The notes beneath the pieces are model-generated. The model ran no database searches and had not been told where the DNA came from. It saw only the letters and a list, made by a program, of their open reading frames with translations. This document shows positions 10,990 to 46,224 of a stretch of DNA of 51,013 bases, piece after piece. Location of the stretch: the IMG/VR virus record IMGVR_UViG_2548876959_000011; one strand, written 5' to 3'. Numbering within the stretch: the first letter of the stretch is position 1; each line of letters starts with the position of its first letter. The translations under genes and the position numbers were made by a program. This stretch comes from a virus (Duplodnaviria > Heunggongvirae > Uroviricota > Caudoviricetes).

Positions 10990-11006
10990 AATGCTCTAAT
11001 AAATTT
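10990..11006 (+). promoter_or_regulatory. C1 operator-like site upstream of immI (Op51-like)
   Basis: AATGCTCTAATAAATTT, 16/17 match to ATTGCTCTAATAAATTT. Confidence 0.7.
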
Positions 11007-11189
11007 GTATTTTTAAGTCACGAATGCTATCTTTTCGCATCATATTGACCTTTTAATCGTTCAGGCTTATAGTTCCGCCGTCGTAGCAAATTCTGCGACC
11101 GGGTTTAGCAGCCTGAATGATTGTGCGGACAGCCGCAGATATCCGATATTGCGGTATTTTTGTGTCCGTAAAACCGCGTTACGCCCAAA

Positions 11190-11285
11190 TTATGGTGGGG
11201 CGTGATGGGGAGGCTTCGGCCTGCTGGTTTCACAATCGCCAGTCTGCTAACCCCGTCACGTCCTGCCACCTGTTTAGCAGCGGGT
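11190..11285 (+). ncRNA. c4: c4-like antisense repressor RNA region (approximate bounds)
   Basis: Structured leader upstream of icd/ant; tcacaatc (11232-11239) is complementary to gattgtga just upstream of the icd start; UUCG-looped hairpin and 7-bp stem ctgctaa/ttagcag. Confidence 0.35.
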
Positions 11286-11320
11286 AGCAGGTTGTTAAAC
11301 CTGATTGTGAGGCCGTAACT

Positions 11321-11542
11321 ATGGTTAATGCCAATCCTTGCGCACGCCCAGAATTCATCTGGCGTTTCTATTCCTGTAAAAAACACCACTATCACTTCGT
11401 TATCGCAGCAACTGAAGACGAAGCACGCTCTCAATTGCCTGATGGCCCCTGCATTTTTACTGCCCGTTTTTCAACTAACTCGCGCAATTCACTTAGTTAC
11501 TGGAGCCTCCCCTTCTCTGCCGACGTTCAGGGGGGTTTATGA
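11321..11542 (+). CDS. icd: Icd-like cell division inhibitor
   Basis: 73-aa ORF whose stop overlaps the ant start (ATGA); position between c4 region and ant. Confidence 0.65.
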   Translation: MVNANPCARPEFIWRFYSCKKHHYHFVIAATEDEARSQLPDGPCIFTARFSTNSRNSLSYWSLPFSADVQGGL

Positions 11543-12582
11543 AAAAACCTCTCGTCACCCGTAATGACATAGCCGAAGCGATCGCCCTGCATACTGCCTG
11601 TATACCGACACGGGAGATCCCCGGCGCAATTGCCAACTATTTCATGATAACCAGGCGTTTTTATACCCGAACAGATAAGGCTGTGATCAACAGGCTACTG
11701 ATAGCCGAGATCAGGGATTATTTGATTGAACAAGGACGTCTACGTTACGCAACGGTGGCAGCAGAAATGAGAAAGGAGGCACATAGAATGACCAGTAATA
11801 ATTTGAATGTTAAAAAACCAGCACCTGTTGCTTCAGCAACGCCAGCACCAGCCGTGAATGTCATCCCCACCACCGGAGACACAATCGACAGCCTGACACT
11901 GTTAAAGATGGTCAATGAAGCGCGTAAGTTATGTGGGGAACCAGAGGTTCGGAACAACAAATTCATCGAAAAAATACTCGACGAATTAGAAGGTGAGGAC
12001 GGTTACACAAAAAGTGCAACCGTGCCGCCAGGTGGCGGTACGCCTATGGTTGTCATAACCATGACCTACAAACAAGCCCTGCGAGTCGCCGCGCGCGAAT
12101 CGAAAGCGGTCCGCCGTTCGCTGATCGACAAACTGGAAGAATTGCAGCAGGCAAACTCCCCTACCCCATCGATCCCCCAAACATTACCAGAAGCCCTACG
12201 CCTGGCTGCCGAGTTGGCAGAACAGAAATTGCAGCTGGAACAACAGCTGGTGGCCGCAGCCCCTAAAGTCGATTTTGCCGACCGGGTATCAGTGGCTAAT
12301 GGAATCCTGATCGGGAACTTTGCAAAGGTCGTTGGACTTAAGCAAAACGCCCTTTTCTCATGGTTGCGCCAGAACGGCATTCTCATGGCTTTTGGTGCGC
12401 GCAAAAACGTACCGAGCCAGCAGTACATTAACGCCGGGTATTTCACGGTGAAAGAAGTGGTGCTGGATGATGAAAATGGCTACCAGATACGGCTGACGCC
12501 CCAATTAACGGGTAAAGGCCAGCAGTGGTTAACTCGCAAGCTACTTGATGCTGGTTTGTTAAAACCAGTAGCAATAGGTTAA
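11539..12582 (+). CDS. ant1: antirepressor Ant1
   Basis: 347-aa ORF; C-terminal domain shared with the KilA-like ORF (LPEALRLAA..LAEQK...GKGQQWL..LLDAG); immI context. Confidence 0.8.
   Translation: MKKPLVTRNDIAEAIALHTACIPTREIPGAIANYFMITRRFYTRTDKAVINRLLIAEIRDYLIEQGRLRYATVAAEMRKEAHRMTSNNLNVKKPAPVASATPAPAVNVIPTTGDTIDSLTLLKMVNEARKLCGEPEVRNNKFIEKILDELEGEDGYTKSATVPPGGGTPMVVITMTYKQALRVAARESKAVRRSLIDKLEELQQANSPTPSIPQTLPEALRLAAELAEQKLQLEQQLVAAAPKVDFADRVSVANGILIGNFAKVVGLKQNALFSWLRQNGILMAFGARKNVPSQQYINAGYFTVKEVVLDDENGYQIRLTPQLTGKGQQWLTRKLLDAGLLKPVAIG
11788..12582 (+). CDS. ant2: Ant2, nested in-frame product of ant
   Basis: In-frame ATG at 11788 preceded by strong SD AAAGGAGG (11772-11779, 8-nt spacing); would give a 264-aa product. 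Confidence 0.5.
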   Translation: MTSNNLNVKKPAPVASATPAPAVNVIPTTGDTIDSLTLLKMVNEARKLCGEPEVRNNKFIEKILDELEGEDGYTKSATVPPGGGTPMVVITMTYKQALRVAARESKAVRRSLIDKLEELQQANSPTPSIPQTLPEALRLAAELAEQKLQLEQQLVAAAPKVDFADRVSVANGILIGNFAKVVGLKQNALFSWLRQNGILMAFGARKNVPSQQYINAGYFTVKEVVLDDENGYQIRLTPQLTGKGQQWLTRKLLDAGLLKPVAIG

Positions 12583-12588
12583 CAAAAG

Positions 12589-12620
12589 AAAAAACCTGCC
12601 AGCAAACTGGCAGGTTTCTG
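12589..12620 (+). terminator. rho-independent terminator after ant
   Basis: Stem acctgccag/ctggcaggt, loop caaa, followed by TTTCT. Confidence 0.6.
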
Positions 12621-12659
12621 AGCAGATCGACCAACCCGATCTGGATCGAGTCAGAAAAA

Positions 12660-12676
12660 TTTGCTCTAATAAATTT
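12660..12676 (+). promoter_or_regulatory. C1 operator-like site upstream of kilA (Op53-like)
   Basis: TTTGCTCTAATAAATTT, 16/17 match to consensus. Confidence 0.7.
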
Positions 12677-12745
12677 CGTTTTCTAAGTGCAAAGAATCAC
12701 CATTTCGAGCTGGTGATTGAAGGTTGATGCAAATTTGGAGAAAAA

Positions 12746-13546
12746 ATGCAACAAACATTCAATGCGGATATGAATATATCAAACCTTCATCAAAATGTCG
12801 ATCCTTCAACCACTCTGCCTGTTATTTGTGGTGTTGAAATTACGACCGACCGCGCTGGCCGTTACAACCTTAATGCTCTACACAGAGCGAGCGGACTCGG
12901 TGCCCATAAAGCGCCAGCTCAATGGCTAAGAACGCTGTCAGCCAAACAGCTCATCGAAGAGCTTGAAAAAGAAACTATGCAGAATTGCATAGTTTCGTTC
13001 GAAGGCCGTGGCGGCGGCACTTTTGCCCATGAATTGCTCGCTGTGGAGTACGCAGGCTGGATTTCTCCCGCGTTTCGGCTGAAGGTAAACCAGACATTTA
13101 TCGACTATCGAGCCGGAAGATTACAACCTGCTATTCCGCAGAGTCTCCCTGAAGCTCTCCGTTTGGCTGCCGACCTGGCAGAGCAAAAGCAACGGCTGGA
13201 GCAAAAAATGCTTATGGATGCACCTAAAGTCGAATTCGCCGAACGCGTTGCTACCGCCAGCGGGGTTCTAATCGGCAACTATGCCAAAGTGCTCGGTCTG
13301 GGCCAAAACTATCTCTTCACCTGGTTGCGTGATAACGGAATTCTGATCGCAACCGGTGAACGCAGGAACGTCCCCAAACAAGAATACATATCCCGTGGGT
13401 ATTTCACCCTTAAAGAAACCGTGATCGATACAAGCAATGGAAGCAGGATTTCTTTCACGACTCGTATAACCGGCAAAGGTCAGCAGTGGCTGATGAAGCG
13501 ATTGCTTGATGCTGGTGTGCTGGTACCTGTCGCGGCAACGCGCTAA
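12746..13546 (+). CDS. kilA: KilA (KilA-N domain plus antirepressor-like C-terminal domain)
   Basis: 266-aa ORF; KilA-N-like N-terminus (GRYNLNALHRASG); C-terminal domain paralogous to Ant. Confidence 0.75.
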   Translation: MQQTFNADMNISNLHQNVDPSTTLPVICGVEITTDRAGRYNLNALHRASGLGAHKAPAQWLRTLSAKQLIEELEKETMQNCIVSFEGRGGGTFAHELLAVEYAGWISPAFRLKVNQTFIDYRAGRLQPAIPQSLPEALRLAADLAEQKQRLEQKMLMDAPKVEFAERVATASGVLIGNYAKVLGLGQNYLFTWLRDNGILIATGERRNVPKQEYISRGYFTLKETVIDTSNGSRISFTTRITGKGQQWLMKRLLDAGVLVPVAATR

Positions 13547-13575
13547 CAGACGTAGTAAGAACCACCAGCATTGTA

Positions 13576-14421
13576 ATGCTGGCTAAAGTCACTTTCCTGA
13601 GCTGTATAACGATGAGCGATTTTACTTTTTCTGGCTATGAATTGGCCTGCTTTGTAACACACTCCGGTCTATCCCGTAGCGCCGGGCATATCCTGTCGCA
13701 ATGTGCAAATCTCGCGGCAACAACCAGTGAATACTTCATTCACAAGCCTCACCGCCTGATCGCGGCAGAAACTGGTTATAGCCAATCAACCGTCGTTCGT
13801 GCATTCCGTGAAGCTGTAAACAAAGGAATTCTATCTGTAGAGATTGTTATCGGCGATCACCGTGAACGTCGCGCTAACCTGTACCGGTTTACACCATCCT
13901 TTTTGGCCTTCGCACAACAAGCCAAAAATGCGCTGATTGAAAGCAAATTAAAGATCTCTTCAGCGGCAACCAAGGTTAAAGCTGTTCTCGCTAAGACATT
14001 GGCTTTATTTAATTTTTTATCCACACCCCCATGTCAAAATGATACCCCCTCCCCCTGTCAGGATGACGTGGCAATAAAGAATAAGAAGTCACAAATTAAA
14101 AAAACAAAAAGATCAGTTTCCGGCGGTGCCGAAACGACCAGCCTCAAAAAACTGACTTCATGGATCGCCGAGGCAAAAGCAAAGGCTGACAATCTGCGGT
14201 TATCCAAAAAACGCGCTCAAAAACATGAGTTCAAGCAGAAAGTAGAGGCGGCAGCGCGGAAATATGCTTACCTGAAGAACAAGCGTTCTCCTGATATTGG
14301 CGGGGTATCAAACTTCGATAATTTGCCGCATTGCATGACGGTAAACGAAGCTCTTAATGCGGTTTTAGCCAAAAATAAAGATAACGAACAATGGGGTATA
14401 CCGGCAGGATTTAGAGGGTGA
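13576..14421 (+). CDS. repL: RepL lytic replication initiator
   Basis: 281-aa ORF immediately downstream of kilA; HTH-like segment SQSTVVRAFREAVNKGIL; the lytic origin is expected within this gene. Confidence 0.65.
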   Translation: MLAKVTFLSCITMSDFTFSGYELACFVTHSGLSRSAGHILSQCANLAATTSEYFIHKPHRLIAAETGYSQSTVVRAFREAVNKGILSVEIVIGDHRERRANLYRFTPSFLAFAQQAKNALIESKLKISSAATKVKAVLAKTLALFNFLSTPPCQNDTPSPCQDDVAIKNKKSQIKKTKRSVSGGAETTSLKKLTSWIAEAKAKADNLRLSKKRAQKHEFKQKVEAAARKYAYLKNKRSPDIGGVSNFDNLPHCMTVNEALNAVLAKNKDNEQWGIPAGFRG

Positions 14422-14471
14422 TAGATTGCTCTAATCTGGAGTCACCTGGCGTTTTCAGTTTGAGGTCGGAG

Positions 14472-14717
14472 ATGCAATCTGATTTTTTACAGTTAGCGAT
14501 CGCTTTTGCAGGATATGTTTGTATTGGCTTCTGTGTATACATGATCAGCCGAAAAATGCTTGTCGATATCGACCGCAAAGAACAAGCAGAGGAGATCTTA
14601 GTATGGATTTTCTTTGGCGCGGTCTGGCCATTAGGGATCATGTTTGCTGCAACATTTCTTCTGATGTGGATATTCACCCTTCCAGGTGATTTCTATAGAA
14701 AAAAAGCCAGACATTGA
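14472..14717 (+). CDS. small membrane protein
   Basis: ATG at 14472 with GAGG RBS inside ORF 14418..14717; two hydrophobic helices. Confidence 0.45.
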   Translation: MQSDFLQLAIAFAGYVCIGFCVYMISRKMLVDIDRKEQAEEILVWIFFGAVWPLGIMFAATFLLMWIFTLPGDFYRKKARH

Positions 14718-14794
14718 TACAATCGTTGCGGGTGCTTGAGGCTATCTGCTTCAGGCATTACCCGAAAAGCAGATAGAAGAAAGCCCCAGATAAC

Positions 14795-14865
14795 ATTACG
14801 CGTCCTGCAAGACGCTTAACATTAATCTGAGGCAATATCTATGCTTAGCATACGTAGATTAGCCT
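14795..14865 (-). ncRNA. sok: putative Sok-like antisense RNA (approximate)
   Basis: Inferred from hok/mok architecture; reverse-strand TTGACC -35-like element near 14866-14871 and hairpin gcgtc/gacgc at 14800-14815. Confidence 0.3.
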
Positions 14866-15047
14866 CTTACCGACCAAAAGGTCAAGGAGAAGCAGGCTAT
14901 GAAGCAGCAAAAAGCGATATTAATCGCTCTGATCGTCATCTGTTTAACCGTCATTGTGACGGCACTGGTAACGAGGAAAGACCTCTGCGAGGTACGAATC
15001 CGAACCGGCCAGACGGAGGTCACTGTCTTCACAGCCTACGAATCTGA
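14841..15047 (+). CDS. mok: Mok-like reading frame overlapping hok
   Basis: 68-aa ORF in a different frame, starting upstream of hok and ending near the hok stop, as in hok/mok/sok loci. Confidence 0.5.
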   Translation: MLSIRRLASYRPKGQGEAGYEAAKSDINRSDRHLFNRHCDGTGNEERPLRGTNPNRPDGGHCLHSLRI

Positions 15048-15054
15048 AAGGTAA
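14899..15054 (+). CDS. hok: Hok/Gef-family type I toxin (51 aa)
   Basis: Hand-translated: MKQQKAILIALIVICLTVIVTALVTRKDLCEVRIRTGQTEVTVFTAYESER, near-identical to the HokD/Gef family as recalled; AGGAGA RBS; below ORF-track cutoff. Confidence 0.85.
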   Translation: MKQQKAILIALIVICLTVIVTALVTRKDLCEVRIRTGQTEVTVFTAYESER

Positions 15055-15127: not shown

Positions 15128-15155
15128 TAAAAAAGCTCCCGAAGGAGCTTTAAAA
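15128..15155. terminator. bidirectional rho-independent terminator
   Basis: Stem aaagctcc/ggagcttt with cgaa loop, flanked by A-run and T-run; sits between convergent hok and the leftward structural operon. Confidence 0.7.
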
Positions 15156-15170
15156 TACAAGGGATGACTC

Positions 15171-15680
15171 TTAATCCCACTCAATCCAGTTGTAGACGAT
15201 ACGAAGTGACGGGCGCACAGCGGCAGTCACATCTTCGGTACTAAAGTCGATTGCATCACTGTAGATTTTGCAGTCCAACATTTCAATTGTTGTAGCAGCT
15301 TTTGTCACAGCGTTAACCCCGGAAGATTTGGATTCAGGGGTAGCAGCCATCGTGATATCAACATAGTCCTTCGCCGCAATGCGATCTTTAATGAACTGAA
15401 GAATATCGCCTTCGATAGTCTCCACGCACTGGACCTGGATTTCCCCTGAGTTTCGAATTGGACCGTGCTGGTTGAACTTCACACCATTCGGACCATAGTC
15501 CTCCACATCCTCGCGGGTCATTTCAGGAATTTGCGACGTGCGAACCAGTACGCTGATATCTTCATGGCCTGCAAAAGTGAGCTGGAATTCAGAAGATACC
15601 AGTCGTTCGCCTTTGGCCGCGTTGGCAGTATAGCGGCCCTTAATAAATTTACGGTTTCCCTTAGTGTTATTGTGCCCCAT
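15171..15680 (-). CDS. virion structural protein (possibly tail tube-like)
   Basis: 169-aa ORF at the distal end of the leftward head/sheath operon. Confidence 0.45.
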   Translation of the reverse strand: MGHNNTKGNRKFIKGRYTANAAKGERLVSSEFQLTFAGHEDISVLVRTSQIPEMTREDVEDYGPNGVKFNQHGPIRNSGEIQVQCVETIEGDILQFIKDRIAAKDYVDITMAATPESKSSGVNAVTKAATTIEMLDCKIYSDAIDFSTEDVTAAVRPSLRIVYNWIEWD

Positions 15681-15691
15681 ATAAAATCCTT

Positions 15692-16273
15692 TTACTGGAA
15701 CGCCCGAACAATATCGGAGCTGTTATATATCGAAGAACCGGTCAACTGGAGGTTGACGGTGTTTTTCAGGAAATGTCCATTGCTGTCCCTGGGCGCATCG
15801 AGATCGAAACTTATGTCCTGGATAGCGACATCAATGATGTTGATCCGGCGACCAATGTTTAGCGTCACACGCTCCGGGATTCGACCACCAATACTGGCAT
15901 CTTTAAGTTCCGGGCTAATCATCGCTGACAATGCGGCGATAGCTCCTGAAACCTCCGTGAATGGGTCAAACAAAGCGATGAAAGTTACTGGCAGCGTGAA
16001 AGTCGGCGGTGTTCCCCCTTCCCAAACCATTAAGCTGTTCCAACGGGCAACCGACGTTGTTTCAGTACCAACCTGCGCAAAACCACTGAAGGCACCAGCA
16101 ACAGATCCCATGGACATACCGGTAAACGGCGCTTCCCAATTCTGGGCCATGTTCATTGCCGCTCCCTGGCTGATATATCCGGTAACCTGGTACTGAGAGT
16201 TCGTTAAAGTAACTTTCAGATATGGCGATACACCGTCAGCCTGGCTGTAAACCCCATAAGGAATAGGTGCCAT
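15692..16273 (-). CDS. virion structural protein
   Basis: 193-aa ORF in the same operon; synteny only. Confidence 0.45.
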   Translation of the reverse strand: MAPIPYGVYSQADGVSPYLKVTLTNSQYQVTGYISQGAAMNMAQNWEAPFTGMSMGSVAGAFSGFAQVGTETTSVARWNSLMVWEGGTPPTFTLPVTFIALFDPFTEVSGAIAALSAMISPELKDASIGGRIPERVTLNIGRRINIIDVAIQDISFDLDAPRDSNGHFLKNTVNLQLTGSSIYNSSDIVRAFQ

Positions 16274-16308
16274 TCAAGTTAAAGGCCGGAGTTCTCCGGC
16301 CTCCTCCT

Positions 16309-17124
16309 TTAGCCAAGGCGCTTACGGCGCAGTTTCATTGACTTTTTGCGGGCAAGTTTTGCCGCGCCGGTCTGGGCTTTTCGACGCGCTTTTTTCAGCG
16401 CCGATTTTTGAGCCGCAGTCAGACGTTTTTTACGCAGGCGTTTACGGATGAGTTTGATCTCACCGTTACGAACAACCTTCTTAAATGCTTCAGTCAGCAT
16501 TTCATCAGAAGTGCCAGCAACAACAAACGCCGCTTCCAGTTCGTCGCGGTCGTCGCTATCTAAACCAGCGATAGAGGCACCAACATCAGCAGCTGCGTCG
16601 TCGTCTTCATCGTCAGCCAGTGCTTCGATCAGGTCATCATCTACACCGCATGCTGCGAGGAAGTCAGCAACATTTGCCCATGCTTCGTTATAGGCATCGT
16701 CCTGTTCTTCTGTAACTTCGGAGTCGTCGTCATCAGAGATACCAGCGATAGCCTGAACGAAACCATCAAGGGAGTCGAAAGTCAGATCACCGCTATCAGC
16801 CCAGGCGAAAACGGCGTCGGCCGCATCACTCAACGCATTTTGCATAGCACTTCGATTTGCAGCTTCCAGAATCATCTGGTGCGCCTGTTCGACGGTCCAT
16901 TCTTTACCGTCTTTCCCTTCCAGGATTTGCTCAGGAGCCTGGGCAGATGGAACGTTATCGTTAGTCTGTGCCGCCGGTTCCGGATTATTATTAATAACCG
17001 GATCTGTTGGCGGTTCAGCGCTTGCTCGGGCAGACTCCATCAGCTGCACAGGATCAGAGTTCAAAGCGAAACGAGACAGTCCATTCCCCAAAAATGCCCC
17101 GGATTGAAAAAAGTTTTTGCTCAT
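16309..17124 (-). CDS. acidic protein with basic C-terminal tail (scaffold-like?)
   Basis: 271-aa ORF; extended D/E-rich region (ISDDDDSEVTEEQDD, ADDEDDDAAAD) followed by K/R-rich tail (RKRLRKKRL...RRKRLG). Confidence 0.5.
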   Translation of the reverse strand: MSKNFFQSGAFLGNGLSRFALNSDPVQLMESARASAEPPTDPVINNNPEPAAQTNDNVPSAQAPEQILEGKDGKEWTVEQAHQMILEAANRSAMQNALSDAADAVFAWADSGDLTFDSLDGFVQAIAGISDDDDSEVTEEQDDAYNEAWANVADFLAACGVDDDLIEALADDEDDDAAADVGASIAGLDSDDRDELEAAFVVAGTSDEMLTEAFKKVVRNGEIKLIRKRLRKKRLTAAQKSALKKARRKAQTGAAKLARKKSMKLRRKRLG

Positions 17125-17133
17125 TGTATTCCC

Positions 17134-18723
17134 TTACTTAATAAGCAGCGGTACGCCCTGGATACGACGGGCTACGCCAGTCGGGCAGCAGGCCCAGACT
17201 ACTTCCCATTTATCGAATTCCGCCTGCGTAACTTTCAGCACATACGGTTCTGTACCGTCAGCATCAGGATCACGAGGAGCCACCAGAGCGCCGGAGGCGA
17301 CAAAGCGATCTAAAAGTTTGGTCATCCCTTTAGTCAGGCCAGCCGCAGTAATACCGTCCGGGCTATGCTTCATCTGTCGGGCTAACTGGACAAAGAAACG
17401 GCTGATTGCATTCATCAGGGATGGGACGTGCTGGAAGTGCAGATAGTTATCCTGCGTGCAGCAAGTTAAAGCATCGTCGATGATCATCTGGCCAGAGGTG
17501 CCAACAGATACTTTATTGAGACGGCCCTTGACCATTGCTTCTTCGTCCGGGGTATCTTCCGGATACAGCGGTTGAATTGACGCACGAGCAATGACGGCAC
17601 GTTCTTCACCAGCCGGTGAGTAATGCCAACCGCCGACATCAGAGTTTTTCTTGACGCCACGAGCTTTCGCCGCATACGCCACGCCAGACAGACCAAAGAC
17701 CACACGGGATTGGGTCCATTTGTCTTTGCAGGAGAACGGGTAGTGATAGACAGCACAGCTTACATAATCGGTACCAAGTAAACCGGTATCTTCAACAGCA
17801 GAGATCGCTTCCGTGTACGTCAATGTCGGTTTGACATCAAAGAAGCCATCAATCAGGCGATCTGCACAGATTTTACCTAATGCGGTGATAGCCGCATTGT
17901 CATAGCAGCCCAGGCCAAGAACAGCGGTGTACATGTACGGCGCATTATTCAGCACTTTAACCGCACGCAGGTACGCAGCGGTTGAGATTTTCGACTGATC
18001 GCCGTTGGTACCGCCAGTGAACGCCAACGATTTTTTGTTTGTTACTTTCGCTGTCGAAATCAGCTCTTCATTAACAACCGCGCGCAGATATTTAGAACGG
18101 GCTTCCAGAGCCGTAGGCAGATAACACAAGCGGCCCATGTCATCTTTCGCTTCTTCCGCCAAAGACACAGTGTGTGTCTCCAGGGTCGTTACCACGCCGA
18201 GCGAAGTCGTCTGGGTCAGTTTTAAGAGGAAGCGTTCATTACCCGCGCTGTCCGCTGTTGCCGTTTCGATGGTTAACTCACGGGTAGGTGAAATACACGG
18301 ATCACCATCATCAACGTAGATAGCAAAGGCTTCGCCACTATCAAGTTCAATTTCAGAACCGTATGGCAACGCACTGTAAGCCGGTTCGCCTGATTCATCG
18401 AACATAATAATCGGGAACTTCGCATCATCCGGAACAGCGCGAACAACATAACCAGACGTTTGCTGAATAGCTTCGTATACATGGCGAATTGGTTCGAACT
18501 GTGAGCCGGAAGACGGCTTCAGCGGTTCGCCGAGAACATCTTCGTAATTGGACTCAGTAACCGCAAGAACAGTAAACGGCTTGCCACGCGCAAATACGCC
18601 AATACCAGCCCATAAGCTGCTATTTAATGCAACACCGGTAGATAACGTCGCATCGGCATTGATCGGGCTAACCGCGACGCCGGATGCATTACCTAATGAC
18701 TGTTGAATTGAATATTGAGACAT
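17134..18723 (-). CDS. putative contractile tail sheath protein (P1 gene 22 position)
   Basis: 529-aa ORF; size and position between major head gene and smaller structural ORFs; N-terminal region resembles sheath proteins by eye only. Confidence 0.5.
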   Translation of the reverse strand: MSQYSIQQSLGNASGVAVSPINADATLSTGVALNSSLWAGIGVFARGKPFTVLAVTESNYEDVLGEPLKPSSGSQFEPIRHVYEAIQQTSGYVVRAVPDDAKFPIIMFDESGEPAYSALPYGSEIELDSGEAFAIYVDDGDPCISPTRELTIETATADSAGNERFLLKLTQTTSLGVVTTLETHTVSLAEEAKDDMGRLCYLPTALEARSKYLRAVVNEELISTAKVTNKKSLAFTGGTNGDQSKISTAAYLRAVKVLNNAPYMYTAVLGLGCYDNAAITALGKICADRLIDGFFDVKPTLTYTEAISAVEDTGLLGTDYVSCAVYHYPFSCKDKWTQSRVVFGLSGVAYAAKARGVKKNSDVGGWHYSPAGEERAVIARASIQPLYPEDTPDEEAMVKGRLNKVSVGTSGQMIIDDALTCCTQDNYLHFQHVPSLMNAISRFFVQLARQMKHSPDGITAAGLTKGMTKLLDRFVASGALVAPRDPDADGTEPYVLKVTQAEFDKWEVVWACCPTGVARRIQGVPLLIK

Positions 18724-18783
18724 AACTTTCCCTGTTATGCGCCCCGCACGGGGGCGCTATGTTAAACGGAGAACTTCCCCTGA

Positions 18784-20511
18784 TTACTCAGAGTCACCGG
18801 CATCAATCGTGTCGCCGCTAATGAAGTTAAGCCCGCCTTTTTTGGCCATTGTCAGCGTTACACGAGTGAAGTAATCAGCGCCGTTGCGTGGGTGCATATC
18901 GTTGATAGCCGAACCCCACAGCGTGGTACGGTTGACCAGCGCCGGAGTGGTCGGATGCTGGAACGGGATGGCCGGGACAGCATCACCAGTCACGAAGCCT
19001 GCTTTACCCGGATTTTCATCACGGACGTAGCACAGCACATCCATCGAGCTGAACTGAATGTTCTCTGTCGTTAAGTTCTTACAAATACCAGCAGGTACTT
19101 CGTACACTTTCACGTTACCGAACAGGGTACCGATGTAGTGAACATACGGAGTCTGGATATAGTCTTCGGCTGGCTGGAAGAAATCCTTCGGCAACTGTTT
19201 GAAGAAAGATGCTGCATCAGCACCAGCAAACATCCCCATCGCACCAGAAGATTTAACGCGCTCAATAATGTCGCGATATACAGTCTGGAATTTGCCACGA
19301 ATGATGGTTGCCCATACATCAAAGGACTGGTTAACCGGCAGAGCGATGTCAAAGGTGTCGGTCGCAAGAGTACGCCAGATCATGATGCGAAGACGCAGCA
19401 TATCCTGTTCATGAGACAGGTATTCCTTCAGGGTGCGGAACTGTAGGGAACCCAGGTCCAGACCAAATTCACGCTGTGCTTCATACGCCGCCTGTACCGT
19501 GTGCTCAGCCGCGATAACGAACTGGCTTGGGAACAGGGTGTATTTCTTCATTTCGTGGTTGATCAGCGGGATCAGCTCAGGAGCGGCTTCAATATTGATT
19601 TCCGTCTCAATTGCGATCTCAGTGCCTTTATCCGGCGCTTTGGAGAACGACAGGGCAATCTGACCAATGTTGTAGTTCAGAGAGCAGGTAACAGTGATTT
19701 GCTCACCAGCAGCATTAGTAAACGAGTGAAGTAGGCTGCCGGAACCGTTATCAACAACAGACTTAATACGGTTAACGTAGATATTAGTGCGACCTTTTCG
19801 GATTGGTACATTCTGGCCTTCGAAGTCTTCCATCTTGAAGGTTGCGGTTTTGCTGGTGCCATCGGAGCTTGCCACCAGCACATAGCGGCGGCGTAACTGG
19901 CTGTACACACCGACGGATTGCATGTCCAGAACATCACCAGCAGCATAAGAACCAAAAGAGGAACCTGCCACGTTAAAGACTTCATAGATGTCGGACTGGT
20001 CACGCGTAACCGGAATGAAGGTACACGCATCAGCGGTAGCTGCCCCCAACTGAACAGGCAGGATCATCGCGAGGAATAAAGGCAGACGCATAACACCGTC
20101 AGAAACGCTCATCATCTCTGCTGCGACGGATTCCAGCATCGCTTTATTAGTGGCATCCATGCTATTGCGGGTGGACTCAATCAGGCAGTTTTCCAGCGTC
20201 TGGTGGCAGGAGGCCAGAATTTCCGGACGCGGCATAGATTTATGTGCTGCGGCGTAGTCAGCCAGTGCACTTGCCCACGCTGTAGCGATTTGAGCGGTGG
20301 CATTATCAGAGATACCCGCAAAAACCGGGTCTTTACGTGCAGCTTCAAGGATAGATGCGGCACGCGCGGCATCATCTTTAATGAATTGGTTATCAGTACC
20401 GAACTGCGCAGTGCTTGCCCAGCCAAGCACAGCTTTAGAGCGTTTTGCGATATCTGCAATACGATTCTGGTATTCGCGTAAGTTACTCAATTTACTCTTC
20501 CTTAAACACAA
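18784..20511 (-). CDS. putative major head protein (P1 gene 23 position)
   Basis: 575-aa ORF adjacent to parS/parB as recalled for P1 gene 23; GC hairpin immediately downstream. Confidence 0.5.
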   Translation of the reverse strand: MCLRKSKLSNLREYQNRIADIAKRSKAVLGWASTAQFGTDNQFIKDDAARAASILEAARKDPVFAGISDNATAQIATAWASALADYAAAHKSMPRPEILASCHQTLENCLIESTRNSMDATNKAMLESVAAEMMSVSDGVMRLPLFLAMILPVQLGAATADACTFIPVTRDQSDIYEVFNVAGSSFGSYAAGDVLDMQSVGVYSQLRRRYVLVASSDGTSKTATFKMEDFEGQNVPIRKGRTNIYVNRIKSVVDNGSGSLLHSFTNAAGEQITVTCSLNYNIGQIALSFSKAPDKGTEIAIETEINIEAAPELIPLINHEMKKYTLFPSQFVIAAEHTVQAAYEAQREFGLDLGSLQFRTLKEYLSHEQDMLRLRIMIWRTLATDTFDIALPVNQSFDVWATIIRGKFQTVYRDIIERVKSSGAMGMFAGADAASFFKQLPKDFFQPAEDYIQTPYVHYIGTLFGNVKVYEVPAGICKNLTTENIQFSSMDVLCYVRDENPGKAGFVTGDAVPAIPFQHPTTPALVNRTTLWGSAINDMHPRNGADYFTRVTLTMAKKGGLNFISGDTIDAGDSE

Positions 20512-20624
20512 GGCACTTGTGTGAATCCCTTTTCGGAAGAGATTTTATTGAAAGTCACTTGTTGACTTTCTCGTGACAAGCAATTTTTTTATTTTTTTCG
20601 GGAGTAGGGGCGGAAGGTAAAATC

Positions 20625-20712
20625 CAAGGTGAAATCGTGGCGATTTCACCTTGAAATTTTAGATGGATTTACTTTAAAAACAGTAGGTTAATAGTGAAAT
20701 TTGAATGGCGAA
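20625..20712. promoter_or_regulatory. parS: parS partition site
   Basis: ParB heptamer boxes gtgaaat (20629), atttcac (20643), gtgaaat (20694); hexamer boxes tggcga (20638, 20706); A/T-rich IHF-like region between them. Confidence 0.75.
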
Positions 20713-20715
20713 AGT

Positions 20716-21717
20716 TTAAGGCTTCGGCTTTTTATCGAGGCTCTTTCTAAGGATATGCCCAATCATCCTGTCGAGTTCTTCCTGTAGCTCTTTTGAAAGT
20801 CGATTAAACTCATAAGAAAATGCACGGCCTTTCACGCGTTTCCTTGCAAAGCGATCCTTGTCCTCAAATTTCCATAATTCAGTAACTACGGACTTATCTT
20901 TAGAACCTTTATCCGTGAGTAGTGAGGCTTCCTTTGTTATCAAGCGCAGGATTTTATTTTTAACTTCATCTTCGGCCATTTCTTCAATGGATAAGATGTC
21001 GTTTATTTCCGGGGATATGTTTTGAATAAGCTGATCAAACTCTAAATTCTTGTTCCCCATTTCGTCGCCAACAGCACAAAGCGTTTTGTAGTCCGAAAAG
21101 GTTAATTCCGACTGCACAGGGAAAAGGGCGACTAATTCTTCCGGAGCACTCGCTGCCTGGAGAGCACGCGTGACCTTCGCCTGAGACAGCCCTTCTTTGG
21201 CTGCAATATCCTTCTGACTCATCCCATCATTTTTCATTCGCATCAAACGCAGACCTATTTCTCGAATGCTGTGCTGCAATGCTGTCTGAACGTCTTTCGC
21301 TAAATTTTGCGCTTCCTGAACGCTGATCTCCTGGTCCGTGACTAAAACCCGCAACCCTACGTTCTCTAAGATGGCAGAAGCTCGACGCCGGGAACCATCC
21401 AAAATTTCAATTTTCCCTGTAGCCCGTCTAACACCTATTGCAGGGTAAAATTGCTGATGCTTAATAGTGCTTCGGATACTTTTTAATGATTTTGGCGTAA
21501 GAGATGCCTGGTCACGCCCGTTGTTATGCTGATCAACAAAGGTATCGCTTTCTACCTGGTTCGGAGGTATTACCTCTTCAATAAATGTGGCCTGGCGACC
21601 AGTTGATAACTTGAATACCTGCTCGACTCGATCGCCAGAGGCTGAAGAACTATCAAATCCGCTTAATATTGAAGGATTAAGGGTTCGCCCAATTGTTGGT
21701 CTGTTTTTCTTTGACAT
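20716..21717 (-). CDS. parB: ParB partition protein
   Basis: 333-aa ORF downstream of parA and adjacent to parS; N-terminus MSKKNRPTIGRTLNPS... recalled as P1 ParB. Confidence 0.95.
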   Translation of the reverse strand: MSKKNRPTIGRTLNPSILSGFDSSSASGDRVEQVFKLSTGRQATFIEEVIPPNQVESDTFVDQHNNGRDQASLTPKSLKSIRSTIKHQQFYPAIGVRRATGKIEILDGSRRRASAILENVGLRVLVTDQEISVQEAQNLAKDVQTALQHSIREIGLRLMRMKNDGMSQKDIAAKEGLSQAKVTRALQAASAPEELVALFPVQSELTFSDYKTLCAVGDEMGNKNLEFDQLIQNISPEINDILSIEEMAEDEVKNKILRLITKEASLLTDKGSKDKSVVTELWKFEDKDRFARKRVKGRAFSYEFNRLSKELQEELDRMIGHILRKSLDKKPKP

Positions 21718-21733
21718 GGGGGGTTCTTACTCC

Positions 21734-24652: not shown

Positions 24653-24666
24653 AGAAGGAAACCGTA

Positions 24667-40764: not shown

Positions 40765-41343
40765 ATGTTGCGCTTTACTGAGGAAGAGTTTCAGGCTTTT
40801 AGTGAGCGTCGAAATAAGGGGCGGTCCAGGCCAAAAACCAAAAAGGATCCATTCTTATCGCTTGCGCCGGTAAAAGAAGTTTCTCCACATGCGAAGGCAC
40901 TTGCAGCACTGGCAAAGAACCCAGACCTGCGCGACGGAAATTGCGAGCACTTCGAGCAGGTTTTCATTTTTGATTACTTCGAACGCAAGCACCCTGACAT
41001 CTATGATCTGTTGCATGCAACGCCTAACGGAGGGAAGCGTTCAAAAGCAACCGCTGGGAAAATGAAGGCTGAAGGGCAGAAAAAAGGTTATCCGGACATG
41101 AGTCTCGATAAAGCATGCGGTATTTATCACGGCATGCGAATTGAGCTTAAAGAACCAAATGGTAAAGCCCCGACGAAAGAGCAGATCGCCTGGATGCGCA
41201 GGCTTAGAGAGGAAGGCTACTACGTTGTTCTTGCGTATGGTGCAGAACAAGCGATTACCGCCATCCTGGAATACATAAGCCTTAAAAAGGGTGAGGCTAT
41301 TGAGCATGTATTGAACGGCGATAAGTGGTTGTCTGTCGCTTAA
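40765..41343 (+). CDS. VRR-NUC domain nuclease-like protein
   Basis: 192-aa ORF; GYPDMSL...MRIELKEPNGKAPTKEQIAWMRRLREEGYYVVLAYG matches VRR-NUC pattern. Confidence 0.6.
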   Translation: MLRFTEEEFQAFSERRNKGRSRPKTKKDPFLSLAPVKEVSPHAKALAALAKNPDLRDGNCEHFEQVFIFDYFERKHPDIYDLLHATPNGGKRSKATAGKMKAEGQKKGYPDMSLDKACGIYHGMRIELKEPNGKAPTKEQIAWMRRLREEGYYVVLAYGAEQAITAILEYISLKKGEAIEHVLNGDKWLSVA

Positions 41344-41410
41344 AATAATAAATTAATTAGTGCATGTGCACTCTTTGTGGTAGTGCACTTTAACATCGGG
41401 AGAATAATCG

Positions 41411-41565
41411 TGTCATCCAAGGTTAATTATGAGTCGCTGGCATCGGTCATGCCGCGTAATGAACAGGAAACAGATGCTGTAGTGGACCCTGTAATCGCTG
41501 AAATGAATGCTCGCCTGGAGGCTGAATTTGCAGCTGAGAATGAACATACCACCCAGGGCGACTAG
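41411..41565 (+). CDS. small hypothetical protein
   Basis: GTG at 41411 after GGGAG RBS, inside ORF 41377..41565. Confidence 0.3.
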
Positions 41566-42169
41566 GACTGTTTTTTGTGTCGGTAGCGGTCCGTCACTCA
41601 CTCGTGAGGACTGTGCTGCTATAGAAAAAACTGGCTGTTCAATCATCGCGGTTAACAATTCCTGGCAGATGTTCGATGACATTTATGCCTTATACGCCGG
41701 TGATTTGTCATGGTGGAAGCAATACGGATCCACCATACCGGGAGGGAGATTCCGCAAAGTGACAGCCAACCTGGCGGCGGCGAAATCATTTTCGTTGGAG
41801 TACAGGCGATATTGTGGACCGGCGGAAGGGGTAAATAGCGGCGCGCAGGCTATCAGTCTGGCTGCTGAATCAGGGGCTGAAGTAGTGGTATTAGTCGGCT
41901 ATGACTGTTCTCTGCAAAACGGCCTTCATTGGCATGGCGCGCACCCTCAAGCCCTACGGAATCCAACGCAGGTGTCTATTTCAAAATGGCAACAGCAGTT
42001 CCTGGATACCCGCAAAAAACACGCAGATTTACATATTTTGAATGCAAGTAGGAGCAGTGCAATTCAATGTTTCCCAAGAATAAATTTAGAGGCAGTGATC
42101 GCGTTATTATCGTCGGCAGTGGCCCAAGCGCCGCAAACTTTGTTGCGCCGCGCGGAGTGCCGATTATAG
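41507..42169 (+). CDS. DUF115 (MptE/Cst-II-like) family protein, paralog 1
   Basis: N-terminal VFCVGSGPSL...IIAVNN and VVLVGYDCS motifs; start may be at 41540. Confidence 0.45.
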   Translation: MLAWRLNLQLRMNIPPRATRTVFCVGSGPSLTREDCAAIEKTGCSIIAVNNSWQMFDDIYALYAGDLSWWKQYGSTIPGGRFRKVTANLAAAKSFSLEYRRYCGPAEGVNSGAQAISLAAESGAEVVVLVGYDCSLQNGLHWHGAHPQALRNPTQVSISKWQQQFLDTRKKHADLHILNASRSSAIQCFPRINLEAVIALLSSAVAQAPQTLLRRAECRL

Positions 42170-42693
42170 CGGTCAATGGGGCCATCGACTGGCTGAACCG
42201 CGCTTCTTATTTTTTCACACTTGATCCATCGCCAGACAATATGCGGCGCGTTGGTCGTGGCCGCCGTCGCCGTGGTGTTTGTTATTGCATGGCACTACCC
42301 GATGTTAAAGAACGTGAAGTCAGAGATGGCGTTCTGTGCTTCCGTCGTGTGGCTGAACGCGGCATGGAGCCAAACAATACGAATTCTCCCGAGTGGTGGG
42401 CGTGGCGCTGGTCCGCACATTTCGGACTTTGCGAAGATGAGAATGAAATTGCCAGCGGCAATAGTGCATATGGTGCTCTGAACCTGGCTTTCCATATCGG
42501 ATTCAAACATGTCGCCCTGGTGGGCGTTGACGCTACACAAGAACCACGCGTTCACTCCGGCGGCACGCCAAAAAATCTAAGTCACCTGCCTTTGTTATTC
42601 CAGTCTGCGCGTGAACGGATTGACGTTGTTTCATGCGGGAAAATGGGAGGTATTCCGCAGATGACTCTTAAAGAATGGCTGAAGAATACATGA
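42067..42693 (+). CDS. DUF115 (MptE/Cst-II-like) family protein, paralog 2
   Basis: N-terminal [10 protein letters not shown]...IIAVNG and VALVGVDAT motifs paralleling the upstream ORF. Confidence 0.45.
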
Positions 42694-43367
42694 TGGCACC
42701 CACAATTTATCACCGTATCGACGGTACCAAATACAGGAATGTCTGGGTTGTTGGTGATCTGCATGGTTGCTACACCAGACTGATGTCCGAACTCCATCGT
42801 GTGGATTTTGACCCGGCGCAGGATTTACTGATATCGGTCGGCGACCTTATCGATCGCGGTACTGAAAATGTCGAATGTCTGGAACTATTGCAGATGCCCT
42901 GGTTCAGGGCAGTGATGGGGAACCATGAGCGGCTGATGATTGATGCGTTAAGTCCAGATGGCAACGTGAATAACTGGCTAATGAATGGCGGACAATGGTT
43001 CTTCATGCTGGACACTGATCAGGAAATATTAGCTTGGGCGCTGGTGGAGCTGGTAAAGCGTCTGCCCTATATCATTGAGTTGAACACCGGGCAAGAAACT
43101 ATCGTTATAGCCCATGCCGACTATCCGGATAATGAATACCAATTCGGTAAGGAGGTGCCGCTTTTCAACGTTGTCTGGGCGCGCGAGCGTATCAGTGATT
43201 CGATGGATGATATTGGTGGCGAAATTTCGGGCGCAGATCGTTTTATCTTTGGTCACACTCCGGTGAAAAGCCCGAAGACATTCTGGAATCAGCAGTATAT
43301 CGACACTGGTGCCGTATTTTGCGGAAACCTGACATTGATGAAAGTGAAAGGTGATGGTGCAGCATGA
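42675..43367 (+). CDS. ppp: Ser/Thr protein phosphatase (lambda-PPase / calcineurin-like)
   Basis: Motifs GDLHG, GDLIDRG, GNHE. Confidence 0.85.
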
Positions 43368-44065
43368 AGATTGCTTTAGTTTTTCGCTCTGGTGGTGACT
43401 ATAACGCTTCCGATGTGCAGTGGCTGGTTAATCAACTGCCAAAAGGCTATGAAATTATTTGCCTGACAGACCTGAAGCGTTTACATGTACCTGGCGTCAA
43501 AGTTGTCCCATTGATCAACCAGTGGCAAAAGTGCCGTGGCTGGTGGGCGAAAATCGAGTTGTTCCGACCGGATATAACCGATGATCTGTTCTATCTGGAT
43601 TTGGACACGGTTATTGCCGGTGATATACGCCCAATCCTAGAGCATCCACCAACCAGCTTCACCATGCTTAGGGATTTTTACCATCCACAATATCGTGGCA
43701 GCGGTGCCCTGTGGATACCAAATAGTGTTAAAGCGCATATCTGGAGTTCATTCTGGCAAGATCCGGAAGGTTGGATTTCTCGTTGTGTCACTACTGAGTG
43801 CTGGGGTGACCAGGGGTTCTTACGAAAGGTTATGGGCGATGATACACCAGCATTTCAGGATCTGTATCCAGGATGGTTTGTAAGTTACAAGGCCGATGTT
43901 GTGGAACCTGGTTCAAAATATGCGAGCGCGCGTTACTCCAGGGGGAATGGGGCATTACCAAAAGACTGCCGAATAATCTTTTTCCACGGCAAACCGCGAC
44001 CTCGCGAAGTGTCAGAGGATTGGCTTCCCCTTATCAGCTCGTTTTTTGAGCGAGAATCAGAATAA
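43364..44065 (+). CDS. GT-A-like glycosyltransferase candidate (DXD motif)
   Basis: 233-aa ORF; [13 protein letters not shown] resembles GT-A DXD region. Confidence 0.4.
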
Positions 44066-44066
44066 T

Positions 44067-44083
44067 ATTGCTCTAATAATTCC
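44067..44083 (+). promoter_or_regulatory. C1 operator-like half of a palindromic operator pair
   Basis: ATTGCTCTAATAATTCC, 14/17 match. Confidence 0.5.
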
Positions 44084-44115
44084 ATATTTTTAAAACGTGA
44101 TGTACACTCATCACG

Positions 44116-44132
44116 TTTTTTATTAGAGCAAT
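44116..44132 (-). promoter_or_regulatory. C1 operator-like half of a palindromic operator pair (inverted)
   Basis: TTTTTTATTAGAGCAAT; reverse complement 14/17 match. Confidence 0.5.
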
Positions 44133-44146
44133 CTACAAGGTGCACT

Positions 44147-44365
44147 ATGTGGCCATTCCGACGGAAATATCACTACTGGCTGATCGCCTTTGTTACGCCG
44201 ACCGGCGGTATCAGGCATGTCATCACCAGGTATCGCAACAAGAGACTCACTTTAGCCAGAATTTTACAGGCTGCCATAGGTGAGGGACTGGATACAAATT
44301 GCGTAGTCCTTCCACCTTCATACTTAGGAAAAATGACCGAAGCACAAGCTAATACGGAACTTTGA
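44147..44365 (+). CDS. small hypothetical protein
   Basis: 72-aa ORF immediately upstream of the 420-aa ORF. Confidence 0.35.
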   Translation: MWPFRRKYHYWLIAFVTPTGGIRHVITRYRNKRLTLARILQAAIGEGLDTNCVVLPPSYLGKMTEAQANTEL

Positions 44366-44366
44366 A

Positions 44367-45629
44367 ATGAGCACTTCAGCACAAAACCAATCAATCGAAA
44401 ATGTATCTATCCCTGACGTCCTGAATGCCGGTATCCCGGCCATTATCCAGAACATCCGAGCCGCGCAACGCCGCGTTAGTTGTGATGACCTCACAGCGCG
44501 TTTTTTTGATAATGCGGTTCAGTCAGCGGAGATGCTTCACGCACAGCTTATTGATGTTTATAACGCAGAAGCTGATAGCCATAACTCCCTGGTAGATGCA
44601 GCTGAAAATATGCAGTTGGATCTCGGTCTGAAGGGTAAAGAAATTGAAGAGCTTCAGCTGGAAATTGAACATTTGAAACGCCAGCAACAGGACGCGATCG
44701 AAGATGCGACGCATGACGCCAACCAGCGTGCTGATAATGCCGAACGTATAAGCATTGAGCTGGAAACAAAACTCAATGAAATGACCGCGATGGTTGTGCT
44801 GCGGAACTCACAGATTTCAACTCTAAAATCTCAATATAAAGAGATCATGAAACTTGATCCTTTTAACCTTGAGAAACGCTATAACAAAGCCAAAAGCGAG
44901 CGACAGGAACTGCGTAAGCAGATTGTCGACCTTAACCAACAGCTCAAAAAGGCTATTAAAGATGCAAGCGAGGCGCGCGTGGCATTTGCTAATAAGAAAG
45001 CAGAGGTTACCGAGCTGGTTAATGAAAACGCCAAATTTGCGACGCTCAAGAAGGAAATGTATGGCATTACTGAGCGCCGTTTCCCTGCAAGCAAACTCCA
45101 TCCGACGTTAGGGCAAATCTCATTCTTCCCGCGCCTCCTGGCTTATGGGATCTCATCGCCTAAAGAGTTCAATAACGAGCGTCCTTATATCGTTTCTAAG
45201 CTGGACTTTGCTTATCAGTTCTGCTGCGACATGGGCTATGCCATTGATATCCGGATCAACGAATGGTTGATGCCAAACTTCCAGCCGTTGGCCATTTTCC
45301 GCGAGTTCCAGCCGGAAGGTTGGGTAGAGTTCTTCCATGAATTGATCTGTAAAGAGATGGAAAGCCGCCGCCCGGAACTGGTCCGTCGAGTTGAGTGGGC
45401 GCAAGAGGTTATGTTGGCAGATGCAGAGCTGCCGTTCGAACCGGAATTTATTGATGATCTGGCAGCTAAAGGGCTGCATACCCTGTTTGATGTGGTTACC
45501 CGCCGTCATGAGCAGTTGGTTGTCGAATTGGGTTTAGAGGAAACAGCGGCAAGAAGACTTCTCGATGTTTGCTATGCACGTAGCGATGCATGGGAAAAAG
45601 AGAACGGCGGCACTATTTACGTTCGCTGA
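44367..45629 (+). CDS. coiled-coil hypothetical protein
   Basis: 420-aa ORF; N-terminal half heptad-rich (LKGKEIEELQLEIEHLKRQQ). Confidence 0.5.
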   Translation: MSTSAQNQSIENVSIPDVLNAGIPAIIQNIRAAQRRVSCDDLTARFFDNAVQSAEMLHAQLIDVYNAEADSHNSLVDAAENMQLDLGLKGKEIEELQLEIEHLKRQQQDAIEDATHDANQRADNAERISIELETKLNEMTAMVVLRNSQISTLKSQYKEIMKLDPFNLEKRYNKAKSERQELRKQIVDLNQQLKKAIKDASEARVAFANKKAEVTELVNENAKFATLKKEMYGITERRFPASKLHPTLGQISFFPRLLAYGISSPKEFNNERPYIVSKLDFAYQFCCDMGYAIDIRINEWLMPNFQPLAIFREFQPEGWVEFFHELICKEMESRRPELVRRVEWAQEVMLADAELPFEPEFIDDLAAKGLHTLFDVVTRRHEQLVVELGLEETAARRLLDVCYARSDAWEKENGGTIYVR

Positions 45630-45701
45630 TAGTTACAGTGTCACTTTTAATGCTGGTGGAGTGCGCCCACCAGCATTTTTTTCGTCCAATGAGGAGGGCA
45701 T

Positions 45702-46208
45702 TTGAGTATTTTCAATAAACACGCACACCAGGAACGTCCGTATATCGTCATAGTCGATATTGATGGAACAATATCAGAGGCAACTGAAGACAGACTGCAT
45801 TTGCTTCCGCCACCAGGTAAAGGTGCATTAACAAAGGACTGGAACGAGTTTAATCTCGCCTGTGACACCGATACACCCATCACTCCAGTTATTGATATGG
45901 TGCGCCAGTTATTTAACGTTTACACGGTCTGGTTTGTAACTGGGCGCTGTGAGATCGCAAGGGATAAAACACGAGCCTGGCTGCGGAAGTACGTAACAAA
46001 CGGGGCTGAGCCTTTGCTATCTATGCGTCCTGCCACCGATGACAGAAATGACGGCCCAGCAAAGATTGATCTCCTTAAGAAAATTGGTCTAAGTAAAATC
46101 GCGTTCGCGCTGGAAGATAAGATTGAAGTGGCGCGTATTTTCAGGAGTCACGGCGTACTTACATTCATGGTCAGGGAGTATGAAAATGCGCTTCTTCATC
46201 AACAATAA
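45702..46208 (+). CDS. pap: HAD-superfamily phosphatase (P1 Pap-like)
   Basis: 168-aa ORF; DxDGT motif VIVDIDGTIS. Confidence 0.7.
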   Translation: MSIFNKHAHQERPYIVIVDIDGTISEATEDRLHLLPPPGKGALTKDWNEFNLACDTDTPITPVIDMVRQLFNVYTVWFVTGRCEIARDKTRAWLRKYVTNGAEPLLSMRPATDDRNDGPAKIDLLKKIGLSKIAFALEDKIEVARIFRSHGVLTFMVREYENALLHQQ

Positions 46209-46224
46209 TTGCTCTAATAAATCT
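46208..46224 (+). promoter_or_regulatory. C1 operator-like site overlapping the pap stop codon
   Basis: ATTGCTCTAATAAATCT, 16/17 match. Confidence 0.65.

Follow-up and report, generated by a model that had tools for sequence, protein, structure and literature searches.

Work on the operators of the phage P1 repressor C1 and the network that they form goes back to the late 1980s, and the C1 proteins of P1 and P7 are functionally interchangeable. The C1 operator is described as an asymmetric 17-base-pair (bp) consensus, ATTGCTCTAATAAATTT, and C1 binds 22 operators dispersed over P1 DNA, controlling RepL and Lpa among others; it is inactivated by Coi and Ant1/Ant2, its binding is strengthened by Lxc, and the synthesis of Ant is repressed by the c4 RNA (PMC8546580). 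By their dispersed repressor sites, P1 and P7 have been grouped with L5 and Bxb1 (PMC1934351). Here, we analysed 51,013 bases of Caudoviricetes DNA (IMG/VR record IMGVR_UViG_2548876959_000011; this whole stretch is called the window), in which a preliminary description had noticed eight dispersed copies of one 17-bp motif and had proposed that a single repressor coordinates the immunity, lytic replicon, methylase, tRNA/helicase and late accessory operons. The analysis leaves us in very little doubt that the sites are the C1 operators of a P1-type (Punavirus, IncY) phage-plasmid and make up a coordinated regulon. The window holds 11 of the about 22 known P1 operators, which is half of the known C1 regulon. 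The observation is confirmed and its interpretation is supported, and both are long established for P1 and P7, being annotated site by site in public records.

The window was identified as part of a P1-type phage-plasmid (Punavirus, IncY) of Escherichia coli: in a megablast search against phage records, the best match over its full length was phage P1 (AF234172/NC_005856), with an identity of about 98%, and P7, RCS47, SJ46 and JL22 were matched as well. Local alignments join window 32-14435 to P1 37152-51585, window 15129-31313 to P1 53412-69594 and window 31487-47097 to P1 69572-85182, with 97-99% identity across P1 37152-85182. Window positions 1-50957 are 99.996% identical to the E. coli IncY plasmid NZ_LR882977.1 (102,017 bp).

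The identities of the operators were taken from GenBank feature notes reading 'protein_bind: phage repressor C1' in the records of P1 (AF234172) and P7 (AF503408). With the exception of Op55, the eleven 17-mers of the window (thus ten of them) agree base for base with annotated P1 operators, in position too, and the P7 record carries the same operator series at the same places. The sites are as follows.

10990-11006, plus strand: Op51 / Oc4, AATGCTCTAATAAATTT, identical to P1 protein_bind 48140-48156, before the c4 RNA-icd-ant1/2 operon (immunity I)
12660-12676, plus strand: Op53 / OrepL, over the -10 of PkilA (P53), controlling the kilA-repL lytic replicon
14425-14441, plus strand: remnant of Op55 / Orlf, ATTGCTCTAATCTGGAG, with only the 11-bp core ATTGCTCTAAT (14425-14435) kept and CTGGAG as its right half
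26862-26878, plus strand: Op68 / Odmt, abutting the -35 of Pdmt, controlling uhr-hrdC-dmt (methylase)
30384-30400, plus strand: Op72a / Obana, a perfect consensus, containing the dmt stop and the P1ban -35 TTGCTC
30395-30411, minus strand: Op72b / Obanb, inverted and overlapping Op72a by 6 bp, the pair being the bivalent ban operator
40443-40459, minus strand: Op82 / O26, in the divergent gene 26 / pmgL control region, beside the late promoters LP26 and LPpmgL
41350-41366, minus strand: Op83 / Oppp, CATGCACTAATTAATTT, weak, with 4 mismatches, between pmgM and pmgN
44067-44083, plus strand: Op86a / OpmgRa, 1 nucleotide past the pmgQ stop, its TTGCTC being the predicted -35 of PpmgR
44116-44132, minus strand: Op86b / OpmgRb, an inverted copy 32 bp downstream of Op86a
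46208-46224, plus strand: Op88 / OpmgT, starting on the last base of the pap stop, before a pmgT-like operon

The proposal of one repressor over dispersed operons was borne out, as the sites are identical in sequence and position to annotated C1 operators of P1/P7, and the P1 and P7 records assign the c4-icd-ant, kilA-repL, uhr-hrdC-dmt, tRNA/tciA/ban, pmgR-pmgS and pmgT operons to them. As for the 'late accessory operons', control by C1 is supported and the word 'late' is not, since late expression in P1 is Lpa-dependent; a putative morphogenetic role is annotated for the operons at Op82, Op83, Op86 and Op88, and only Op82 adjoins late promoters (LP26/LPpmgL).

A scan of both strands of the window with the 17-bp consensus ATTGCTCTAATAAATTT gave 9 matches at ≤3 mismatches, while in 100 dinucleotide-preserving shuffles the number of matches averaged 0.33 and was at most 2, with none reaching 9. 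The eight sites of the preliminary description had correct coordinates and strands and match at 14-17 of 17 positions, with no mismatch at 30384, one each at 10990, 12660, 26862 and 46208, two at 40443 (minus) and three each at 44067 and 44116 (minus). As a total, eight fell short of the eleven present in the window, Op72b, Op83 and the Op55 remnant having been overlooked. The ninth match (30395-30411, minus strand, 2 mismatches) shares six bases with 30384-30400; a scan with the 11-bp core ATTGCTCTAAT at ≤1 mismatch adds 14425-14435, and a site with 4 mismatches, 41350-41366 (minus strand), is added when P1 coordinates are carried over to the window. The weight-matrix scan that had been suggested as a check was run with a matrix trained solely on 7 sites from the part of the matching plasmid that lies beyond the window, and it recovered ten window sites at 15.0-27.9 bits, with the next best window position at 11.4; for 30 shuffles, the mean of the best scores was 12.4 and the highest was 17.3. 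Judged by sequence alone, eight sites are unambiguous, and Op86b and Op83 need comparative evidence. Only 6 of 17 positions agree between the 17-mer and its reverse complement. The complete matching plasmid has 16 sites within three mismatches of the consensus. Across IMG/VR, a scan for an exact 15-mer of the motif was unspecific, more than half of the loci being single chance matches, and loci were sorted into P1-like and other: 53 of the 120 were P1-like, with 1-3 sites each, the other 67 had a single match, and all multi-copy loci were P1-like. A further core-like site at 49218 (ATTGCTCTCATGAAGAA) was rejected as an operator, as it lies in the non-P1 part of the window and scores 8.8 bits, at chance expectation.

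The overlap of two operators with the stop codons of upstream genes, also noticed beforehand, is seen at dmt, where the TAA at 30391-30393 lies inside Op72a, and at pap, where the TAA at 46206-46208 ends on the base with which Op88 begins. Further stop codons lie close by, with that of pmgQ ending 1 nucleotide before Op86a and that of repL 3 nucleotides before Op55, so that four sites are at, or ≤3 nucleotides from, an upstream stop codon. Eight of the 11 sites are co-directed with the operon that they precede. Op86a and Op86b also form the 13-nucleotide inverted outer arms of a composite palindrome (44067-44132), which as an RNA stem gives -26.9 kcal/mol (z = -8.1) and encloses the following feature.

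44092-44119, plus strand: an 11-bp terminator-like hairpin with a U-run, enclosed by the Op86a/Op86b arms

Conservation was assessed by aligning each operator, with 25 nucleotides on either side, in P1, P7, 813R1 and SJ46, where the sites occur at identical positions, in keeping with the positional conservation on which the preliminary description had made its proposal depend. Differences were found at 17 of 697 operator positions versus 195 of 2050 flank positions, and of these 17, the right half of Op55 accounts for ten and bases 1 and 2 of Op51 for three. Hardly any variation is seen in the ten bases that follow the operators downstream, whereas the upstream flanks of Op51, Op68 and Op83 are variable. 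The weak Op83 17-mer is kept in P1, 813R1 and SJ46, with one change in P7. Compared with P1 (AF234172), the window shares ten full 17-mers along with strands, order, neighbouring genes and promoter hexamers (the -10 of P2pmgT differs), whereas it keeps only the core of Op55, has hok/sok in place of the rlfA/rlfB module and diverges downstream of Op88 after window 47097. Compared with P7 (AF503408), the series Op(c4), Op(rep), Op(rap), Op(dam), Op(ban a/b), Op(26), Op(hdm) and Op(sht a/b) has the same positions and nearly the same sequences, the differences being at base 1 of Op(hdm) and in the first two bases of Op(c4) (TC versus AA), the latter because a different module (upf50.0/upf50.5, not sim) abuts that operator.

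A cognate c1 gene was found on the same replicon by way of NZ_LR882977.1, which differs from the window's replicon by an insertion of IS1. In this plasmid, c1 lies at 64054-64905, about 10.5 kb past the right end of the window, and encodes a protein identical to P1 C1.100 at 282 of 283 residues (one residue differs), which matches the NCBIfam equivalog NF041318 phage_rep_C1 with 610.9 bits against a cut-off of 500. C1 matched no Pfam family and, among the solved structures in the PDB, has no sequence relative from which the reading of an asymmetric 17-mer by a single protein could be inferred.

The promoter hexamers annotated in P1 for P2c4, PkilA, Pdmt, P1ban and PpmgR map to the window unchanged and overlap or abut operators, while P2pmgT has an unchanged -35 and a -10 of TAAGAC in the window versus TAAAAC in P1. 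The 3′ end of Op51 runs into the -35 of P2c4 (11004-11010), the -10 TCTAAT of PkilA (12665-12670) is inside Op53, and the -35 of Pdmt (26878-26883) abuts Op68, with its -10 at 26902-26907. For P1ban, the -35 TTGCTC (30385-30390) is in Op72a and the -10 TAATAT (30408-30413) in Op72b, and the predicted -35 of PpmgR and of P2pmgT is the TTGCTC of Op86a and Op88, respectively. Thus Op51, Op53, Op68, Op72ab, Op86a and Op88 all overlap or abut a sigma-70 -35 or -10.

In the mechanism that we propose, C1, encoded elsewhere on the replicon, would recognise the asymmetric 17-bp sequence, and because its sites overlap or abut a -35 or -10, bound C1 would exclude RNA polymerase. Since promoter hexamers overlap the operators, repression by promoter occlusion is the straightforward reading, which we infer from the sequence together with published P1 work. 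In the prophage state, C1 would silence six units in all, namely c4-icd-ant (Op51), kilA-repL (Op53), hrdC-dmt (Op68), tRNA/ban (through the bivalent Op72ab), pmgR-pmgS (Op86ab) and pmgT (Op88), with Op82 and Op83 lying in the control regions of gene 26 and pmgL-pmgN. Upon inactivation of C1 by Coi or Ant1/2, all units would be released together. C1 would in this way stand above c4/ant, the second layer of immunity, and also above the lytic replicon, the methylase, the operon of the helicase and several operons related to morphogenesis. Binding by C1, repression and modulation by Lxc, Coi and Ant would be expected in this element from published P1 work.

The preliminary description had likened a T-rich/TAAG segment behind several sites to a -10. 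The segment is present, but it makes a poor -10, as the final T is lacking; the annotated promoters at Op51 and Op68 use other hexamers. It takes the form TTT[TC]TA[AT][GA], starting at +3 to +6, after Op51, Op53, Op68, Op86a and Op88, and is one T shorter after Op83, as listed here.

11007-11019, plus strand: downstream element GTATTTTTAAGTC, after Op51
12677-12689, plus strand: equivalent element
26879-26891, plus strand: equivalent element
44084-44096, plus strand: equivalent element
46225-46237, plus strand: equivalent element
41337-41349, minus strand: equivalent element

Op99e, outside the window, also carries the T-run element. Over the entire plasmid, the element was found at 6 of 19 operator-like sites, its background rate being 0.001. 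The hexamers at +8 to +13 of seven operators read TAAGTC, TAAGTG, TATGTC, TAAAAC, TAAGAC, TAAGCG or TATGCG, in the register of the P1ban -10 TAATAT, and this is also where the P1 record places the -10 of PpmgR and P2pmgT. Positions +1 to +10 downstream, at elements of the 11007 type, show no substitutions in P1, P7, 813R1 and SJ46. The T-run/TA(A/T)G element has a fixed register (+3 to +13), occurs at roughly one operator in three and equals the operator in conservation.

Two operators coincide with mosaic junctions. At 14435, precisely where the core of Op55 ends, homology with P1, P7, 813R1 and some plasmids stops, and the next 693 bases (to 15128) contain a hok/sok toxin-antitoxin module in place of the rlfA/rlfB of P1, with sok at 14730-14904 (Rfam), a 51-residue Hok open reading frame at 14899-15054 and hokD annotated in the matching plasmid. 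Through this module swap, Op55 was reduced to the half-site ATTGCTCTAAT followed by CTGGAG, which may, from its sequence, fail to bind C1. Homology with P7, SJ46, RCS47 and many PLSDB plasmids starts exactly at 10992, the third base of Op51; this start was seen in about one quarter of a spread sample of PLSDB matches, other groups starting at 10754 or 10778. To the left of Op51, the sim genes are exchanged for other modules, the sim region being swappable with the operator as its boundary. Operators were hit by 2 of about 30 distinct breakpoints in four genomes, while they make up 0.45% of the window; breakpoints at operators exceed the expectation from area, and they are also expected if the operator is the first conserved element of its module. 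We offer it as a tentative and rather unlikely extension that the operator unit is larger than the 17-mer, with the T-run/TA(A/T)G taking part in contact with C1 or C1-Lxc or belonging to an operator-promoter cassette, and, separately, that the cores of Op51 and Op55 serve as module-swap points.

It is very unlikely that the motif is primarily a reiterated promoter cassette, with the -35 TTGCTC inside it and a -10-like TA(A/T)G 17 bp downstream, copied around the genome for RNA polymerase or a phage factor. TTGCTC is indeed the annotated -35 of P1ban, PpmgR and P2pmgT, seven operators have a +8 to +13 hexamer in the P1ban -10 register, and the downstream flank is as conserved as the operator. 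However, the motif covers the -10 and not the -35 at Op53, the -35 stands at its 3′ edge at Op51 and Op68, the inverted partners Op72b and Op86b would be senseless as promoters, and the TAAGNC hexamers have no conserved final T and are not picked up by a strict promoter scan; the P1/P7 records and PMC8546580, moreover, assign the sites to C1 binding. A promoter cassette and a C1 operator are compatible and not mutually exclusive.

The exact breaks of homology at 10992 (Op51) and at 14435 (the Op55 core) would suit conserved cores that serve chiefly for recombination or as linkers where modules meet, with repressor binding secondary, but only 2 of the about 30 breakpoints fall on operators, the other nine operators are not junctions, and a junction at an operator is expected anyway where the selectively conserved part of a module begins with its operator, which makes this reading extremely improbable. 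Chance occurrence in AT-rich intergenic DNA might account for Op86b and Op83, which score near the top of the shuffled range, and the core-like extra at 49218 fits it. As an explanation of the matches, chance is nevertheless given no probability, in view of 9 matches against 0.33 expected with no shuffle at 9, the positional identity in P1, P7, 813R1 and SJ46, and the stronger conservation of operators than of flanks in these four genomes.

Several points weigh against the C1 regulon as preferred here. The c1 gene is outside the window, where no match to P1 C1, Coi or Lpa was obtained by tblastn, and the true replicon of the window has at least one difference (the IS1 insertion) from the reference plasmid NZ_LR882977.1. 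The Op55 remnant lacks its right half and was left unscored by the weight matrix, Op86b (15.0 bits) lies among the best scores of the shuffles, and Op83 (17.9 bits) is barely above the highest of these. The P1 record gives most promoters linked to operators as predictions, and when 10900-14600 was scanned strictly for sigma-70 promoters, the scan returned only P1c4 and PaskilA, the weak operator-linked promoters not being recovered. The evidence for this element is sequence comparison, with binding and derepression resting on P1 work (PMC8546580, its references and the GenBank notes).

More distant comparisons were also made. A scan of genome contigs with RepL gave 3 loci, all close relatives or fragments, and a distant blastn search with the dmt-ban junction gave only close P1-like elements and unrelated Dam, tRNA and dicF-like matches. 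With tblastn, D6 was the sole distant relative of RepL in the phage collection, its RepL being 25% identical. Phage D6 (MF356679) contains no P1-type site at all. Like the window, it carries a dispersed, asymmetric motif of about 17 bp, in 12 copies at ≤3 mismatches versus 0.2 expected (e.g., 195-211, 4628-4644, 21264-21280, 64112-64149 and 76634-76650), with copies before c1, lpa, ref and hrdC-dmt (there as an overlapping inverted pair) and just after repL. The D6 motif differs in sequence, however (TTTGTGTTAGAAAACTA), and D6 C1 is identical to the P1-type C1 at only 56 of 242 residues and matches NF041318 at 25 bits. A full-text literature search for the core of the D6 motif, in which the D6 genome paper was not included, returned nothing relevant. 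Since D6 has its own motif network at analogous places, the dispersed-operator architecture is conserved in the wider group, the recognition sequence having changed with the repressor.

The stoperators of mycobacteriophages L5, L1 and Bxb1 resemble the sites in the window in that many asymmetric repressor sites are spread across the genome, instead of a few palindromic operators beside the repressor gene. They differ in having a 13-bp motif, GGTGGMTGTCAAG (PMC1934351), and a repressor of the gp71 type, the motif of the window being a different sequence; furthermore, L5 sites block elongation within transcription units, which P1 sites are not known to do. There is no sign that the repressors are homologous, although no test aimed at this was made. 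The likeness of P1 to L5 is one of analogy and not of membership. The operators of lambdoid CI/Cro are unlike those of the window in two respects, as each of them has dyad symmetry, which in the window exists only in the inverted pairs Op72ab and Op86ab, and as they form a tandem cluster beside the repressor gene, whereas the window sites extend over 35 kb that contain no repressor gene.

Other features of the operator-controlled operons are given below.

11067-11119: a1/b1 targets of the C4 RNA (Rfam)
11188-11273, plus strand: C4 antisense RNA, first product of the operon under Op51 (Rfam RF01695, 69.6 bits; RF03163, 55.5 bits)
31067-31220, plus strand: tRNA-Asn and tRNA-Thr, early members of the Op72-controlled operon
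32848-32923: tRNA with anticodon CAT, called Met by ARAGORN and tRNA-Ile2 in the P1 record
about 33210-34574: ban helicase, downstream of the tRNAs, positioned only by coordinate offset from P1

Just past the tRNA-Asn/tRNA-Thr pair, at 31313-31487, there is a small rearrangement relative to P1, in a region variable among P1, P7, SJ46 and 813R1. The 3′ part of ant1 (12187-12456) and an internal part of kilA (13148-13417) have about 66% DNA identity, in agreement with the KilAC antirepressor domain that the plasmid annotation gives to both proteins.

At the right of the window, P1 homology ends at 47097, inside the pmgT-like gene, and an accessory block (47098-50957) follows, annotated in the matching plasmid as ead/Ea22-like, DUF551 and eaa-type small genes, which we take to be typical of lambdoid prophages. 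SJ46 and 813R1 diverge elsewhere to the right of Op88, at 46494 and 47730. The last 56 bases (50958-51013) are IS1 terminal sequence, 100% identical to the annotated IS1 of P1, RCS47 and SfIV, and NZ_LR882977.1 is without IS1 at that place. At the other end, window 1-56 recurs five further times with a 300-bp period just past the left end of the window (NZ_LR882977.1 24593-25848), in the region of the tail-fibre S gene, where no coding sequence is annotated; the recurrence reflects either tandem repetition within that gene or an error of assembly.

The network described here is textbook biology already, so the finding has little weight as a discovery and is useful as annotation. A clinically common IncY P1-like plasmid type keeps the whole P1 immunity circuit intact, and its induction and superinfection-immunity behaviour should therefore follow P1, with one operator (Op55) flagged as halved by the hok/sok module swap. 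Only the extended downstream element, the mosaic junctions that coincide with operators and the motif network of D6 are mildly new leads, and these are small clues to how dispersed-operator regulons evolve.

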